Part shown: positions 5,624 to 51,351 of the stretch, piece after piece
How positions within the stretch are numbered: position 1 is the first letter of the stretch
Layout of the letters: each line of letters begins with the position of its first letter
From: Minisyncoccota bacterium
GTDB taxonomy: Bacteria; Patescibacteriota; JACMRA01
Direction of reading: 5' to 3'
Assembly: GCA_014376695.1 (NCBI GenBank)
Contig: JACMRA010000003.1
Location: forward strand, 7,881-71,880
Length of the DNA: 64,000 nt
Made by a program: the position numbers and the translations under genes
The notes under the pieces: generated by a model
Databases searched by the model: none
What the model saw: only the letters and a program-made list of their open reading frames with translations
Told to the model about the DNA's origin: nothing

Positions 5624-6550
5624 CTACAAAGACGATTTAGAGTACTTCTCAACAGTGGCCAGCGTAGTTGCAAATAAATCAGTCTCATAGACAGTCTTGT
5701 AACCATTAATTACCGTCAAAAATCGCTCGAAGCCAAGTCCAGTGTCAATATTCTTACTTGGCATATCGCTCAGGTTAACCGGCTCTTTATCGCCGTCTTT
5801 TTCTCCGATGTACTGCATAAATACATTATTCCCAATTTCGATAATATTATCGTCAATCCATTGGACCCTCTCCTGAACAGATAGCTTTGGCAGAATCGAT
5901 GTTTCAAAATCTATTGGCTGATCAGGTAACAAATAATACATCTCTGAACAAGGTCCACACGGACCTTTGTAGGGCAGTCCCCACCAATTGTCTTTGCCAG
6001 ACATGGTTCTGATTCGACTAACTCTATTTTGGTTAGTTTTTAGGGTATCTTCGAGGCTTTGACTATAGTCTGGACCGACCAAGGCCTCCATTCCAAGTTT
6101 TGTGTATTCGGATTGCCAGTACGCAGCGGCCTCACTATCGACATCTACATCTCGCCCGTTACCCTGATAAACAGTTACAAAAAGACGATTTGAATCCAGT
6201 CCTAACCAATCTTTGGAAGTCAAAAATTCCATAGACCATTCAATAATCTCTTTTTTAAAATATGCCCCGATTGACCAATTGCCCAGCATTTCAAAAAACG
6301 TTAGATGCCTATTGTCCCCAACTTCCAATATATCATCCGTTCTAATGCATTTTTGACTGTTGGCTAGCATATTTCCAGCTGGGTGGGTTGCTAAGCCGGT
6401 TAAATAAGGTATAATTGGTTGCATTCCAGCCGTATTAAAAAGTACAGTAGGGTCCTCTTTTGGTACCAATGGGCTAGACGGTATAATGCTGTGGCCTTTG
6501 GACTTATGAAAATCAAGATAGAGCTTGCGAAGTTGATTAGCTGTAACCAT
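5624..6550 (-). CDS. alaS: Alanyl-tRNA synthetase, catalytic N-terminal domain only (about 308 aa)
   Basis: LFNTAGMQP, SQKCIRT, HLTFFEMLGNWS, GPCGPCSE, IDTGLGFER; stops (TAG) just after YETDLF; no tRNA-recognition or editing domain. Confidence 0.9.
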   Translation of the reverse strand: MVTANQLRKLYLDFHKSKGHSIIPSSPLVPKEDPTVLFNTAGMQPIIPYLTGLATHPAGNMLANSQKCIRTDDILEVGDNRHLTFFEMLGNWSIGAYFKKEIIEWSMEFLTSKDWLGLDSNRLFVTVYQGNGRDVDVDSEAAAYWQSEYTKLGMEALVGPDYSQSLEDTLKTNQNRVSRIRTMSGKDNWWGLPYKGPCGPCSEMYYLLPDQPIDFETSILPKLSVQERVQWIDDNIIEIGNNVFMQYIGEKDGDKEPVNLSDMPSKNIDTGLGFERFLTVINGYKTVYETDLFATTLATVEKYSKSSL

Positions 6551-6616
6551 ATAAACGATAAAGAATTTACTTTGAAACAAAAATATCTCCCGAGGGAAAT
6601 ATTGAAAGATTATATT

Positions 6617-6691
6617 TGGTGGGTGATGAGGGATTTGAACCCCCGACCTTCTCCGTGTAAAGGAGCTGCGCTACCACTGCGCCAATCACCC
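6617..6691 (-). tRNA. tRNA-Val(UAC)
   Basis: Cloverleaf GGGTGAT...ATCACCC-ACCA; anticodon loop TTTACAC. Confidence 0.95.
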
Positions 6692-6764
6692 AAGCTTTGA
6701 CGAGAAGACTAAATGGACTTGCTTATTTGATAAACAGATATTTAGCCTTTGTCAAGTATTTGCC

Positions 6765-6992
6765 CTACGCTTCAACCATTGGCGAAACCCGAAAATGAAT
6801 AGTCTTTGAGACTGGATTACATTCCTGAATCTCTACAACCTGTCCCAAAGTGTAAAGACTAGAATCATCGCAGGCAACTGCATATTTTTTCTTAACTTTG
6901 AACCTTTTTCCATATTTGGAATGTAATTTAGTTTTTTCTACTGTGACGATAATCGCCTTAGTCATTTTGTTTGATGTAACTTTACCTGTCAT
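6765..6992 (-). CDS. rpsQ: 30S ribosomal protein S17
   Basis: GKVTSNKMTKAIIVTVE..HSKYGK..KKY..V.IQECNPVSKT. Confidence 0.9.
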   Translation of the reverse strand: MTGKVTSNKMTKAIIVTVEKTKLHSKYGKRFKVKKKYAVACDDSSLYTLGQVVEIQECNPVSKTIHFRVSPMVEA

Positions 6993-7025
6993 ATTATTTT
7001 TATTATTCCTTAATCCTTATACAAC

Positions 7026-48763: not shown

Positions 48764-48836
48764 GTTGGTTTATCAAAAAAGCTTTTAAGCCAGCAGATAA
48801 CTTGACATTGTATTATTTTATAGGCACTATATAGAT

Positions 48837-49598
48837 ATGCTCAGGTGCGTATCGTGGAATATCTACAAAGACAACAAAGATCAAATAAAATCCTTCCAGA
48901 CTTTGGTGGATTTAGAAAATCCCGATGTAATTTGCTTGCAAGAAGTCAGTCCAAAGCTATTGGATTACCTTAAAAATACCCAAACAACTTATGAAGTCGA
49001 GTCCTGTCAGGATTTTAAATGGAAAAAAGATTTTGTAGCCTACTTGGTTATATTGAGTAAATCCAAAATTTTACATAATTATACATCCCAGCTACATAAC
49101 AAAAAAATTGGCTCCTTATTAGCCCGGCATAATGGAATTCGAGAACCAAGAGAGTTTCATTTTGTGGATCTGTTAATTCGAGAAGACTTTATTTTACGGG
49201 TAATTAACCTTCATTTGGAAGTTGCAACTGGGACTAAACGGCGTCAAGAAGAGTTTTACAACACTTTGTCTAATCTGAGTAACCATATCCCGAATGTGAT
49301 TTGCGGCGATTTTAACATATTTGCAAATCCACTTTTGAATATCTTCATTGGCTGGGCTTTTAACTTCGGATTGACTGATTATTTGGCTCTGGAGCGTGGA
49401 AAATTTGAAAAAATATTTAATAAATTCGGATTAAAAAACCTACATTACAAAAAAATTACATACCCAAAATTCAGGCTGCAATTAGACCATATTCTTATAG
49501 ATAATAAGCTCCAATCCAGACAAACCCAAGTGGCAACCAATTTATTTGGTTCGGATCATTACTATATTTCAACTACTTTAGAACCAATCCCTAATTAA
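48837..49598 (+). CDS. Endonuclease/exonuclease/phosphatase (EEP) family protein
   Basis: SWNI, CLQEV, NLHL, GDFN, LDHI, SDH. Confidence 0.9.
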   Translation: MLRCVSWNIYKDNKDQIKSFQTLVDLENPDVICLQEVSPKLLDYLKNTQTTYEVESCQDFKWKKDFVAYLVILSKSKILHNYTSQLHNKKIGSLLARHNGIREPREFHFVDLLIREDFILRVINLHLEVATGTKRRQEEFYNTLSNLSNHIPNVICGDFNIFANPLLNIFIGWAFNFGLTDYLALERGKFEKIFNKFGLKNLHYKKITYPKFRLQLDHILIDNKLQSRQTQVATNLFGSDHYYISTTLEPIPN

Positions 49599-49610
49599 CT
49601 TTTACCGATT

Positions 49611-50621
49611 ATGAATCAAGAACCTCGGAACACCGACTTTGATGATGAGCAGCCCAACCTTTCGGATTTTAGCTACCGTATAAACTCCCTGCCAGGTACC
49701 CAGAAAAAAACTAGTCCCATAGATAGAATTTTGGCCCCGAGGAACGCTCATAAGCTGCGAGTTTATTTGTTATTTTTGGCAGGTTGTATTTTTTTGACCG
49801 CAATTAGTGCCATAACTATCTCAGATGTTAACTTTTATGGCCAAAAAACATATATTGAATACGTCCAAAAATACTTGACGCAAGGTAATTACGGTTACAT
49901 CTCTTTGATTATTATGTTAATTGTTAATGCCTTTTGGGTTTTGATTAATGTGATTATTGAGTTTTTGGCTTTTAATCTTCAGTGGATACCTTCGAAGCCA
50001 ACTCAGTATATAGAGAGCAAAAGCGCCAAAACTAACCAATATACTTCCCAATCAGTCGATAACCAAGTAGAGCAGTTCCTCTTAGATCTGGAAAAAAATA
50101 TATCCGAATTCAGAGAATATGAAAAGAATTTGATCGAGATAGAAAATTTGGAAGATGAAAAAGAGTACAAATTAATCCTCAACCATCCCGTCCTGTCCCC
50201 CTTTGCATTTGTTTGGATCGGACTAAAAAGAGTATTCCGTTTCTTGCAAAGAAGCCCACGAAAAACAAGCTACTATTTTGCAATTTCATTGATTAAATTA
50301 TTTAGCATTTCTGATGGACTTCGTACGTTTTTGATTAACTCAATTGAAGTAATAGTCTACTATCTTAATCCGTTTAATCTATTTGAGGATTTGTATGATA
50401 TTTTGATGACTCTCCTGATAAGGTTAATATTTCCGGCTATTTTAACACCGGTTATTCTTTTTTTCCCGATGAAAAATGGGATTATCTTGGACCAAGCCTG
50501 GAAGATAATTTTGTATATCGTGCTTGTTGGAGGTCTTCGGCTCGGAGCTGAGTTTTATTCGTTATATTTGAGATATTTGGCTAATAGTAAGCTACTAGAA
50601 GAACAATACAAAACCCTCTAA
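49611..50621 (+). CDS. Hypothetical membrane protein
   Basis: 336 aa with several TMs. Confidence 0.65.
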   Translation: MNQEPRNTDFDDEQPNLSDFSYRINSLPGTQKKTSPIDRILAPRNAHKLRVYLLFLAGCIFLTAISAITISDVNFYGQKTYIEYVQKYLTQGNYGYISLIIMLIVNAFWVLINVIIEFLAFNLQWIPSKPTQYIESKSAKTNQYTSQSVDNQVEQFLLDLEKNISEFREYEKNLIEIENLEDEKEYKLILNHPVLSPFAFVWIGLKRVFRFLQRSPRKTSYYFAISLIKLFSISDGLRTFLINSIEVIVYYLNPFNLFEDLYDILMTLLIRLIFPAILTPVILFFPMKNGIILDQAWKIILYIVLVGGLRLGAEFYSLYLRYLANSKLLEEQYKTL

Positions 50622-50625
50622 ACCT

Positions 50626-51351
50626 ATGCTCAGCGATCAAGAATACAAACAGCTGGTATTGATAGTCAACCAATATCGCGCCGATATACATTCAAACAAC
50701 GGGGAACCAATTAGTGAAAGCGCGCTTGACGACCTCAAACACAAAATTACTCAATACGAAAACGAAAATTCTTCCAAAATTGATAAATCTAGCCCTAATT
50801 TGACCATAGCTGGAACGGTTTCTAAAGGTTTCCAAAAGTTCAGACACAAAAATCGAATGCTATCCTTGTGTGATATTTTTGATTTGGACGAGTTAAAAGA
50901 TTGGAACGAGCGCAACTCCAATTATCTAAAAAAAGAGGATGAACTAAATTTAGCTAGTACAGAATTTGTATGCGAACCAAAGATCGATGGCTTAGCCATA
51001 TCACTGATTTATCAAGGTGGGGTGCTAACTCACGGAGTTACTCGGGGAGATGGATTCGAGGGGGAGAATGTAACTGTCAACGTGCTAGAAATTGCCAGTA
51101 TTCCAAAGACTATTCTAGATACTAGAAGTATAGAAATTCGCGGCGAGATATACATTACCCATGTGGATTTTGAAGCTCTTAATCTATCCATTAGTCGTGG
51201 TGAATTAACAGGTAAAATGGGTAAAACGGGCGTTGATGGTATGTTTGCCAACTCACGTAATGTAGCCGCTGGTACCCTAAGGCAATTGAATTCTAATATC
51301 GTTCGCGAGCGAAAGTTGTCGTTTATAGCTTATAATGTAGGATTGTATTAA
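50626..51351 (+). CDS. ligA: NAD-dependent DNA ligase, N-terminal 241 aa only
   Basis: MLSL, EPKIDG (adenylated Lys), TRGDG..GENVT, EIRGEIY, NSRNVAAGTLRQL, LSFIAY then TAA; motifs IV/V and OB, Zn, HhH and BRCT domains absent. Confidence 0.9.
   Translation: MLSDQEYKQLVLIVNQYRADIHSNNGEPISESALDDLKHKITQYENENSSKIDKSSPNLTIAGTVSKGFQKFRHKNRMLSLCDIFDLDELKDWNERNSNYLKKEDELNLASTEFVCEPKIDGLAISLIYQGGVLTHGVTRGDGFEGENVTVNVLEIASIPKTILDTRSIEIRGEIYITHVDFEALNLSISRGELTGKMGKTGVDGMFANSRNVAAGTLRQLNSNIVRERKLSFIAYNVGLY

Follow-up and report, generated by a model that had tools for sequence, protein, structure and literature searches.

Four open reading frames of the 64,000-nucleotide stretch of DNA analysed here (the window) correspond to AlaRS, Der (EngA), GyrB and LigA, which are normally essential single-chain enzymes, and each of them matches only a part of its family model. 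This raises the question of whether these genes are truly fissioned and, if so, how an active enzyme is obtained from the pieces. The original prediction described them as stand-alone, intact ORFs bordered by unrelated genes on the side of the missing part, and this description holds. Indeed, the four ORFs are open, their catalytic motifs are intact and internal stops are absent. At the broken ends, (i) a tyrosine recombinase gene abuts AlaRS-N, (ii) an ORF with a lycopene-cyclase domain lies directly upstream of Der-C, (iii) a polyprenyl synthetase gene sits after GyrB-N, and (iv) a convergent hypothetical ORF is next to LigA-N.

The missing parts of the four enzymes were located by a profile search of the whole genome (G000, a metagenome-derived draft of 16 contigs with a marker completeness of 78%). 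As anticipated, each missing part is encoded by one complementary ORF, present in one copy and on another contig, and no full-length copy of AlaRS, Der, GyrB or LigA was found in the draft, although a full-length gyrB or der, these being young splits, may be present in its unassembled part. The term 'halves' used initially is appropriate for GyrB and Der, which are in two pieces, but not for AlaRS, which is in three, nor for LigA, which is in four and whose family model is covered by ORFs on four contigs (Table 1). Two further partial genes of the window, a transketolase N part and a lycopene-cyclase-domain half, were absent from the initial list. Both have a counterpart elsewhere in the genome; compared with a two-domain protein of 220 aa from the same-phylum genome G022, the lycopene-cyclase half of the window corresponds to residues 4-93 and the second ORF to residues 131-220, and these two halves may belong to a protein that is natively encoded by two genes, and not result from a recent fission.

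Table 1. Location of the gene pieces, of their partners on other contigs (C numbers) and of the neighbouring recombinase; coordinates without a contig number are window positions.
Feature	Location	Strand	Model match or remark
AlaRS piece 1 of 3	5624..6550	-	Pfam tRNA-synt_2c positions 2-259 of 552, E 1.2e-65; TIGR00344 2-251
AlaRS partners (two)	C14:2266-2628; C11:62319-62999	+; -	TIGR00344 272-371, then 383-435 plus 554-694
Der (EngA) piece 2 of 2	21882..22556	+	MMR_HSR1 40-113 of 113 (GTPase domain end) and KH-like domain; TIGR03594 221-430
Der partner	C10:30850-32511	-	TIGR03594 1-166 and 129-220
GyrB piece 1 of 2	35135..35953	+	HATPase_c; TIGR01059 1-210
GyrB partner	C15:56281-57849	-	TIGR01059 180-634
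LigA piece 1 of 4	50626..51351	+	DNA_ligase_aden positions 3-162 of 253, E 2.6e-51; TIGR00575 5-222
LigA partners (three)	C7:8608-9108; C2:56549-56974; C11:61872-62351	-; +; +	TIGR00575 220-392, 391-517, 515-652
Transketolase N part	3649..4491	-	NF004559 positions 15-279 of 627; TIGR00232 6-273
Transketolase C part	C2:81573-82256	-	TIGR00232 350-581
Lycopene-cyclase-domain half	21489..21842	+	Pfam Lycopene_cyc; directly upstream of Der piece 2
Second lycopene-cyclase-domain half	C15:48558-48890	-	
Tyrosine recombinase	4500..5588	-	Pfam Phage_integrase and SAM-like N domain; directly downstream of AlaRS-N break

The cuts had been expected at loops or domain junctions, which is the case for GyrB and AlaRS, whereas LigA and Der are cut inside catalytic domains. 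The first GyrB piece consists of the GHKL ATPase domain followed by a new tail of about 22 aa, and its partner carries a new leader of 66 aa followed by the transducer, Toprim and C-terminal domains, and in the alignment the break falls within a variable loop immediately ahead of the transducer. The first AlaRS piece comprises the aminoacylation domain with its class II motifs and ends at about residue 256-263 of the solved 435-aa catalytic fragment; the cut is at the border of the catalytic and tRNA-recognition parts. In Der, GTPase domain 1 is on the partner, together with a long acidic insert and the G1/G2 motifs of domain 2, and the window piece, whose residue 6 is matched in the alignment by residue 223 of the Bacillus subtilis Der chain 2hjg, opens at G3 of the second GTPase domain and continues with G4, G5 and the KH-like domain; the cut is thus inside the second G domain, between G2 and G3. 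The first LigA piece combines domain Ia with the initial portion of the adenylation domain, in which the motif I lysine (KIDG) is found. On the Escherichia coli LigA chain 2owo, it stops at about residue 229 and piece 2 starts at about residues 237-250, a cut inside the adenylation domain which leaves motifs I-III on one side and motifs IV-V on the other. The LigA junctions are residue-exact, almost without overlap or gap, and pieces 2 and 3 measure 166 and 139-141 aa for 172 and 126 model positions, respectively. In LigA pieces 1/2 and in the Der pieces, the nucleotide-binding sites are divided between chains.

The original prediction of several split essential genes is borne out, and their number is larger than reported. 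Among 230 reciprocal-best pairs, comparison with the unsplit genome G022 yielded 12 proteins that correspond to two or three scattered ORFs of G000, and a single protein shows the reverse situation (split in G022, whole in G000). With LigA and Der added to these 12, at least 14 families are split. Complementary pieces without a full-length copy were likewise recovered with full-length HMMs for TopA, RecJ, UvrB and PNPase, DnaG and TsaD are also among the proteins with split sites, and RpoB is unsplit (1138-aa frame).

It is probable that these genes are truly fissioned and that the separately translated pieces assemble non-covalently into an active enzyme. According to this proposal, in a family probably belonging to the Patescibacteria/CPR, with a genome size of about 1 Mb, single-chain enzymes with essential functions would have been broken into two to four stand-alone, dispersed genes, each piece would be transcribed and translated on its own, and the polypeptides would reconstitute the active enzyme by associating non-covalently (fragment complementation). 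Because LigA and Der are cut in a loop within a domain (the adenylation domain and the second G domain, respectively), the pieces on either side of the cut would have to co-fold into one domain. At the domain-border cuts (GyrB ATPase/transducer and AlaRS), newly evolved terminal extensions may serve as docking elements. The fissions would build up stepwise along the phylogeny, like a ratchet, with G000 as the most fragmented tip.

Structure modelling of one pair, proposed initially as a check, gave a positive outcome with controls. The predicted complex of GyrB-N with residues 1-260 of GyrB-C reached ipSAE values of 0.80, 0.80 and 0.79, versus 0.51 for the best control; the mark used was reached by 58 of 80 solved complexes and by 2 of 110 mismatched pairs, counts which hold only roughly for this model, built on self-made alignments of 8 rows. 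At least 80% of the contacts are common to the runs, the pLDDT of the partner is at least 81, and contacts between the new tail (254-271) and the new leader (8-54) belong to the confident part of the predicted interface. This result may in part stem from solved GyrB 43-kDa structures memorised by the modelling program. The sequence data show that the pieces exist, that together they cover their family models, that they are conserved and under selection, and that they have start signals of their own; we infer that they could associate and restore activity.

An alternative is that some pieces act alone, by sub-functionalisation. The LigA BRCT piece, the AlaRS editing-domain piece and the small GyrA C-terminal piece are autonomous domains, and the AlaRS editing piece could act like a free AlaX, since editing proteins of the AlaX type occur free-standing in other organisms. 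This explanation is nonetheless unlikely: it is impossible for LigA pieces 1/2 and for the Der pieces, given their divided nucleotide-binding sites, and all pieces of a set are kept together across genera.

The breakpoints are conserved in relatives, as expected for genuine split genes in the original prediction. LigA is in pieces in all 18 other genomes of the family and in the same-order genome G019, and is encoded by one full-length gene in 6 genomes of other families. In the closed, single-contig genome of 1.27 Mb (G018), the LigA pieces are located at 0.67, 1.03 and 1.18 Mb, and pieces are 0.14-0.5 Mb apart and on both strands. Among the 120 listed public clusters that are relatives of LigA piece 2, 81 have a length of 157-170 aa, 60 of them with motif IV exactly 50 residues from Met1, and dozens of public clusters preserve piece ends with residue precision. 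A tree of 30 genomes based on RpoB shows that the breaks were acquired in a nested order, namely LigA in three pieces, LigA in four pieces, Der split and GyrB split within the family, with a minimum of one change for the GyrB break and of one change for the LigA 220/520 breaks. For GyrB, G001 yielded the C piece only and G009 the N piece only. An unsplit AlaRS is encoded in G006, within a split clade, and fission is therefore reversible or the gene was replaced. In some relatives, pieces are still neighbours or have only inserted ORFs between them; a fission in situ with later dispersal is thus favoured over the initial proposal that rearrangement itself cut the genes. An order-wide, largely one-way fission ratchet tolerated through an unrecognised covalent re-joining of RNA or protein, without canonical introns or inteins, or through a dedicated assembly system for pieces that complete single catalytic domains, as in LigA and Der, is improbable.

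It is likewise improbable that the pieces are covalently joined after transcription or translation, by mRNA trans-splicing or by protein ligation without canonical inteins. Cuts within single catalytic domains, as in LigA and Der, would be easiest to bear if the chain were restored, and the exactness of the LigA junctions would also fit. However, no Hint or intein domain was found with Pfam in the 10 pieces scanned (4 of the window and 6 partners), and the LigA ORF lengths leave no room for an intein, so that covalent splicing of the split-intein type is not expected; split inteins were rejected as a candidate, no Hint halves being found at the ends of these 10 pieces. An Rfam search of the window at gathering thresholds returned 7 tRNAs only and no intron or ribozyme, and cognate flanks show no extra complementarity over 19 junctions (duplex energy of -41.75, versus -41.88 for non-cognate flanks); group I/II introns and RNA trans-splicing were rejected on these grounds. 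The absence of introns and inteins reported initially is thus upheld for the window and for the pieces scanned. Joints at 35953 or 51351 were not found in DNA or RNA-library contigs, including those of the source run, and one RNA-library contig keeps the genomic arrangement past the GyrB-N stop. These RNA data are contigs assembled from one metatranscriptome, of a relative about 90% identical, and are blind to transcript ends and to rare joined forms, which covalent joining could involve. Furthermore, the pieces all start at an ATG and end at a stop codon of their own. Shine-Dalgarno motifs are absent from the genome at large (24/696 ORFs), and starts were compared with an upstream-context matrix, on which the 19 internal-piece starts score 1.99, native starts 4.15 and in-frame internal ATGs -4.0 (Mann-Whitney p 7.6e-10). 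Judged by this sequence context, the internal-piece starts are native-like and far from in-frame internal ATGs.

An assembly or binning artefact, or a programmed DNA rearrangement restoring intact genes in some cells, is very improbable. The genome is indeed a metagenome-derived draft, and a tyrosine recombinase adjoins the AlaRS-N break. However, the fragment ends are internal to contigs, with stop codons and further genes after them, contigs from another study (about 93% identical) are colinear across the GyrB-N and LigA-N ends into the neighbouring genes, which speaks against a mis-assembly there, and the same pieces are present in 19 further genomes, hundreds of kb apart in the closed one. 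Source-run contigs lack the joints, as stated above. The recombinase is the single PF00589 match in the entire genome and is therefore probably a housekeeping Xer-type enzyme rather than a marker of a mobile element; the other breaks tested have no adjoining recombinase, and the 14 break-side neighbours examined include no homing endonuclease and no transposase. An excised intervening element of the skin/nifD type was rejected, the pieces being on different contigs and dispersed in the closed genome, with one recombinase only.

Comparison of nine pieces (LigA piece 1 left out) between G000 and G001 gave pN values of 0.04-0.29 and pS values of 0.72-0.95, reported without numerical dN/dS because dS is saturated. 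AlaRS piece 1 shares 84% amino-acid identity with its G001 equivalent (pN 0.11, pS 0.78) and Der piece 2 shares 96% (pN 0.04, pS 0.87), and the termini at the breaks are conserved between the two genomes. The dN/dS check proposed initially thus points to strong purifying selection. Decaying pseudogenes of a reduced symbiont genome, with functions lost or supplied by a host, are hardly tenable: the small genome, the shattered gene order and the low marker completeness would agree with decay, but not the selection, the intact motifs and open frames, the presence of each complementary part exactly once and the residue-exact ends in public clusters.

Fission of these genes also has practical consequences. 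The closed family genome scores just 86% complete, and split genes failing full-length marker models may explain such low scores. Annotation pipelines may tag pieces as hypothetical proteins or pseudogenes; indeed, a LigA piece is called 'hypothetical protein' in one NCBI record. The nested series would allow gene fission to be followed over time in nature, young splits with fresh terminal extensions included. Permissive split sites would be marked by evolution in LigA, Der, GyrB, TopA, RecJ, UvrB, PNPase, DnaG and TsaD, and could provide ready-made designs for split-protein engineering, two of the sites being inside nucleotide-binding domains.

Genes in pieces are known from phages, with the T4 topoisomerase gp39/gp60 and the Aeh1 ribonucleotide reductase, the latter interrupted by the gene of a homing endonuclease. 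As here, a single-chain enzyme is made of two separately translated polypeptides, in one case a GyrB-like subunit, but the phage pieces are adjacent with a mobile endonuclease gene in the gap, whereas here they are dispersed and the 14 neighbours include no endonuclease or transposase. The LeuRS of Aquifex aeolicus is heterodimeric and naturally split; like this enzyme or the two-subunit transketolase seen here, the present enzymes would be products of two genes by fragment complementation. Single split bacterial enzymes are, however, isolated cases whose genes are usually adjacent, unlike the at least 14 families with scattered pieces described here. With the split inteins of cyanobacterial DnaE, the present system shares the production of one essential protein from two distant genes, but it differs by the lack of a Hint domain and of extra sequence at the LigA junctions.

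Scattered split essential genes have up to now been described mainly in the archaeon Nanoarchaeum, and a literature search found no description of them in bacteria. In N. equitans (Nanoarchaeota/DPANN), AlaRS and reverse gyrase are split, conserved operons are absent and C/D box sRNAs flank split genes (PMC3491384). [quoted passage not shown] The set of split genes is bacterial here (NAD-dependent LigA, Der/EngA, GyrB, UvrB, PNPase), with up to four pieces, some cuts inside catalytic domains and a cut number rising stepwise within one family. Split tRNAs, unlike in N. equitans, are not needed, because 37 tRNAs cover all 20 amino acids. If true, this would be the bacterial counterpart of the split-gene state of Nanoarchaeum, and its independent origin in a lineage of ultrasmall genomes would suggest that small population size and extreme genome rearrangement lead to such a state in general.

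AlaRS-N, Der-C, GyrB-N and LigA-N are open frames that each cover only part of their family model, and unrelated genes adjoin their broken ends, in agreement with the original prediction. The source genome, G000, is an incomplete draft of 955,781 bases in 16 contigs, with a GC content of about 40%; the window corresponds to C12:7881-71880. Its assignment to Patescibacteria/CPR is tentative: the closest protein clusters to uS3 are Mycoplasmatota (first) and Minisyncoccota (second and third), and Peribacteria were discarded on account of a published GC content of 58.5% (PMC4736985). 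When this whole draft was searched with full-length NCBIfam models, no full-length LigA, GyrB, AlaRS or Der was found, and each protein was recovered as a complementary set in which every part occurs once (see table). The term "halves" is therefore correct for GyrB and Der (two pieces each) and incorrect for LigA (four) and AlaRS (three). In the first piece of Der, the two G domains are separated by an inserted stretch of about 250 aa that includes a long Asp/Glu-rich run, and the frames of unsplit Der genes in the family are likewise enlarged (600-890 aa). A search with the LigA-N locus returned only distant LigA matches (about 30-45% identity, mostly Alphaproteobacteria) and no family member, and a protein-cluster search with GyrB-C returned only generic gyrase fragment clusters. 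A tRNA gene of the same orientation precedes the AlaRS-N start by 40-70 nt.

Coordinates and profile ranges of split-gene pieces and other features (window positions unless a contig is named; N, M and C denote N-terminal, middle and C-terminal pieces; G022 is the unsplit reference genome)
Feature	Coordinates (strand)	Range or content
AlaRS-N	5624-6550 (-)	tRNA-synt_2c positions 2-259 of 552
Der-C	21882-22556 (+)	end of GTPase domain and KH-like domain
GyrB-N	35135-35953 (+)	GHKL ATPase
LigA-N	50626-51351 (+)	DNA_ligase_aden positions 3-162 of 253
LigA (652 positions), 4 ORFs on 4 contigs		5-222, 220-392, 391-517, 515-652
GyrB, 2 ORFs		1-210, 180-634
AlaRS, 3 ORFs		2-251, 272-371, 383-435 with 554-694
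Der, 2 ORFs	piece 1: G000:C10:30850-32511 (-)	1-220 (ORF of 553 aa, long acidic insert), 221-430
tRNA gene	6620-6691 (-)	
Tyrosine recombinase	4500-5588 (-)	break-side neighbour of AlaRS-N
Transketolase, two parts	3649-4491 (-); G000:C2:81573-82256 (-)	N part; C part
Contigs across the GyrB-N stop	34500-37653	gapless
Contigs across the LigA-N stop	48474-51831	
Contig depth rise	47121-48322	probable highly conserved gene, ORF 47505-48695
TopA-M then RecJ-M	G000:C13:32391-33964 (-)	8 nt gap, broken ends abut
Lyc-N then Der-C	21489-22556 (+)	15-39 nt gap by start codon chosen, broken ends abut
ORFs between AlaRS pieces 2 and 3 of G018	locus L134 (G018:C1:540500-547500), 2676-4582 (-)	
Interrupted AlaRS-N match	G011:C72:4494-7397 (+)	positions 1-126 and 140-250
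Two PcrA/UvrD-like helicases		split versus G022
GyrA		split versus G022 (small C-terminal piece)
PNPase		split versus G022: 4-231, 226-686
UvrB		split versus G022: 2-400, 407-611
TopA, 3 pieces		split versus G022: 1-203, 230-434, 443-628
DnaG		split versus G022
RecJ, 3 pieces		split versus G022: 33-164, 198-365, 366-542
TsaD		split versus G022
Lycopene-cyclase-domain protein		split versus G022
GyrB, AlaRS		split versus G022, identified by coordinates

The cuts, originally read as apparently lying at loops or domain junctions, do so for GyrB, where the alignment puts the cut into a variable loop on the ATPase/transducer border, and for AlaRS, first cut after the aminoacylation domain (about residue 256-263 of a 435-aa solved catalytic fragment). 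Those of LigA and Der lie inside catalytic domains and not at domain junctions: (i) LigA piece 1 ends at about residue 229 of E. coli LigA (chain 2owo) and piece 2 starts at about 237-250, and since crystal constructs restricted to the adenylation domain (e.g. the 332-aa chain 1tae) cover both pieces, the cut lies inside the nucleotidyltransferase domain; KIDG, with the motif I lysine, is on one chain, and DGMVVK, a motif IV-like stretch followed by FPAEE, is on the other, (ii) Der piece 1 still includes the P-loop (GRPNVGKS) and PGTT stretch of the second G domain and then ends, and piece 2, whose residue 6 aligns with residue 223 of B. subtilis Der, starts with 'MSKITKQYILLDSAG', the G3 motif, so that one GTP site would be formed from two chains. 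The junctions of LigA, AlaRS and Der are clean, and new sequence is present on both ends at other junctions: GyrB-N has a new tail of about 22 aa (GyrB-N of the related genome G009 has a tail as well), and GyrB-C has a new 66-aa leader with about 86% conservation from G000 to its relative G001 (hand count from two sequences).

The pieces are neither pseudogenes nor products of mis-assembly. Nine of them (LigA1 left out) were compared between G000 and G001 and share 57-96% amino acid identity and conserved break-side termini, with a pN of 0.04-0.29 versus a pS of 0.72-0.95, values which are given in place of dN/dS because synonymous sites are saturated. Assembled contigs from another study are colinear across the GyrB-N and LigA-N stops: those of two DNA runs, about 93% identical to the window, pass from GyrB-N into the polyprenyl synthetase gene, and others (also from two DNA runs) cross the LigA-N stop. 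No joint at either break was seen in the contigs of four runs. A metatranscriptome contig of 321 bases (about 90% identical) is also colinear over the GyrB-N stop, which is weak evidence, as transcript ends are not visible in such contigs and the RNA library may hold DNA; contigs of RNA run X9 cover 18 of 30 bins, and the uncovered parts say nothing. In all four runs, contig depth rises 10- to 70-fold, with many loose ends, over one stretch of the window, as expected of a highly conserved gene recruiting contigs of other organisms.

Furthermore, the breakpoints are conserved in relatives. Among 30 related genomes (G001-G030) searched for LigA breaks, LigA is present only in pieces in 18 of the 18 other family genomes and in G019, from the same order, with breaks at about 215-222 and 518-520 and an additional one at about 385-392 in G000, G001, G009, G011 and G015; LigA is a full-length single gene in six genomes from other families, in G020 the two parts share a frame, and no match was obtained in four genomes. 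In G018, closed as a 1.27-Mb contig, the three LigA pieces lie at 0.67, 1.03 and 1.18 Mb, hence the scattering does not stem from draft assembly. Of the order's 20 genomes, 19 have AlaRS cut at about 250 (it is whole in G006), and a further cut at about 375 is present in eight genomes. Der is cut at about 221 in G000, G001, G009, G011 and G013 (with a single frame over that point in 14 others), and GyrB is a single gene in 28 of 31 genomes and split only in G000, G001 (C piece found) and G009 (N piece found). On an RpoB tree (30 rows, quick IQ-TREE, SH-aLRT support; G004 absent, its rpoB being at contig ends), the breaks are nested, later ones falling in inner clades: LigA-220/520 and AlaRS-250 map to the base of the order, which has a long stem (0.67), and the GyrB break is confined to (G009,(G000,G001)). 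Minimum changes on this tree number one for GyrB and LigA-220/520, two for LigA-390, Der-221 and AlaRS-250, and three for AlaRS-375, and fission looks like a mostly one-way ratchet. Among relatives of LigA piece 2, 81 of 120 listed public 90%-identity clusters are 157-170 aa long, and in 60 of those 81 the distance from the first Met to motif IV is exactly 50 residues, so that the ends are conserved to the residue across many environments; one relative is labelled 'Candidatus Gracilibacteria bacterium' by NCBI. Marker-based completeness is 68-93% over G000-G019 (86% for the closed G018), and 94-100% in 10 of the 11 other same-phylum genomes (87% in G023), all 11 of which measure 0.7-1.2 Mb; split marker genes may depress this estimate. 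In G011, the two parts of the AlaRS-N match are about 2.1 kb apart in one 980-aa frame, and the large in-frame insertion is possibly an intein. GyrB frames are likewise enlarged in G017 (998 aa) and G030 (1093 aa).

Splitting is genome-wide yet selective, and the several split essential proteins first noticed are part of a larger set of at least 14 families in G000, LigA and Der included (both absent from the reference). This reference, G022, is a closed and unsplit genome of the same phylum (785,860 bases); ORFs were called in both genomes and reciprocal-best BLAST matches were chained. Twelve G022 proteins, 10 of them named by NCBIfam, correspond to 2-3 scattered G000 ORFs each, versus a single G000 protein in the reverse direction. 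Among the 230 reciprocal-best pairs, the G000 partner is shorter than 0.75 of the reference length in 7 of the 30 with a reference of at least 600 aa. Complementary ranges were confirmed by profile searches of G000 for TopA, RecJ, UvrB and PNPase, and the majority of split targets are DNA and RNA enzymes. Transketolase is also encoded in two distant parts, on different contigs; the two genes of the two-subunit transketolase of other organisms are usually adjacent. RpoB is intact (1138-aa frame) and the mean ORF length is not lowered (304 aa in G000 versus 294 aa in G022).

Concerning the origin of the breaks, the original prediction that rearrangement cut the genes is not favoured. In G018, AlaRS pieces 2 and 3 are on the same strand with two unrelated ORFs between them (284 aa, with hydrophobic stretches, and 346 aa, Asn/Ser/Gln-rich), and in G005 two LigA parts are adjacent; these arrangements favour fission in place followed by dispersal. 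Genes would have been split through an insertion, or through a stop and a new start, and the pieces dispersed afterwards through rearrangement. A cut made by one rearrangement is less likely. Pieces of different split genes are adjacent in four cases (TopA-M|RecJ-M, Lyc-N|Der-C, AlaRS-M|PcrA-N and LigA4/AlaRS-C, Lyc-N being the lycopene-cyclase-domain half) versus about one expected (rough estimate by hand), an excess that is suggestive only; the abutting broken ends of the first two could be a trace of two-gene recombination, or chance. Mobile elements were rejected as the cause, as none recurs at the breaks of AlaRS, Der, GyrB and LigA. The 14 genes flanking these breaks comprise hypotheticals, pieces of other split genes and ordinary genes (for an ABC-2 permease, a PEGA-domain protein, ribosomal protein L10, TetR and MerR regulators, an MscS channel and a polyprenyl synthetase), in addition to one tyrosine recombinase directly downstream of the AlaRS-N break, which is the sole one in the G000 assembly and probably a Xer-type housekeeping enzyme.

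With regard to the joining of the pieces, assembly of separate chains is consistent with a complex model of GyrB-N and GyrB-C(1-260), which gave ipSAE values of 0.80, 0.80 and 0.79 versus 0.51 for the best control and passes a mark that was attained by 58 of 80 solved complexes in the calibration, and by 2 of 110 mismatched pairs, counts that hold only roughly here since the run used its own alignments. At least 80% of contacts are common to the runs, partner pLDDT is at least 81, and the confident interface comprises native strands (225-245 with 65-78) together with contacts between the new tail (254-271) and the new leader (8-54); this pass may partly reflect model memory, because similar GyrB structures have been solved. 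Covalent routes are unlikely. Guided RNA trans-splicing is argued against by the flanks of 19 junctions, cognate ones being no more complementary than non-cognate ones (duplex energy -41.75 versus -41.88). The initial observation of no intron or intein also stands: Rfam detects only seven tRNAs in the window, no Hint domain was found by Pfam in the ten pieces scanned, and the LigA ORFs are too short to include intein halves.

Shine-Dalgarno motifs are near-absent in G000 (24 of 696 ORFs of at least 150 aa, versus 7.4% of random positions) and starts have A/T-rich upstream sequence with a strong T at -1, so initiation is likely Shine-Dalgarno-independent. With a start-context position matrix trained on 36 trusted native starts, the mean score is 1.99 for 19 internal-piece starts, 4.15 for native starts (an inflated value, these being the training set) and -4.0 for in-frame internal ATGs of intact genes (Mann-Whitney p 7.6e-10); the pieces have thus acquired gene-like start contexts. 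An alternative genetic code was rejected: TGA is a rare stop (28 versus 350 TAA and 196 TAG in ORFs of at least 200 aa; 28 of 586 ORFs), and it is not a sense codon, because table 11 yields open frames as long as 1963 aa, with a coding density of 0.91.

Phage 'genes in pieces' and the heterodimeric LeuRS of Aquifex are precedents for single enzymes. The closest known state is that of Nanoarchaeum equitans, described as lacking operons and as having numerous split genes, AlaRS and reverse gyrase among them (PMC3491384). Split proteins are thus of a known kind, and their scattered, many-family form in a bacterial lineage is apparently undescribed, with no description in the full-text literature searched (subscription papers and supplements outside its scope). 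The G000 lineage differs from these precedents in belonging to the Bacteria, in having more families split into more pieces, in being cut inside catalytic domains and in presenting a graded series within one family.
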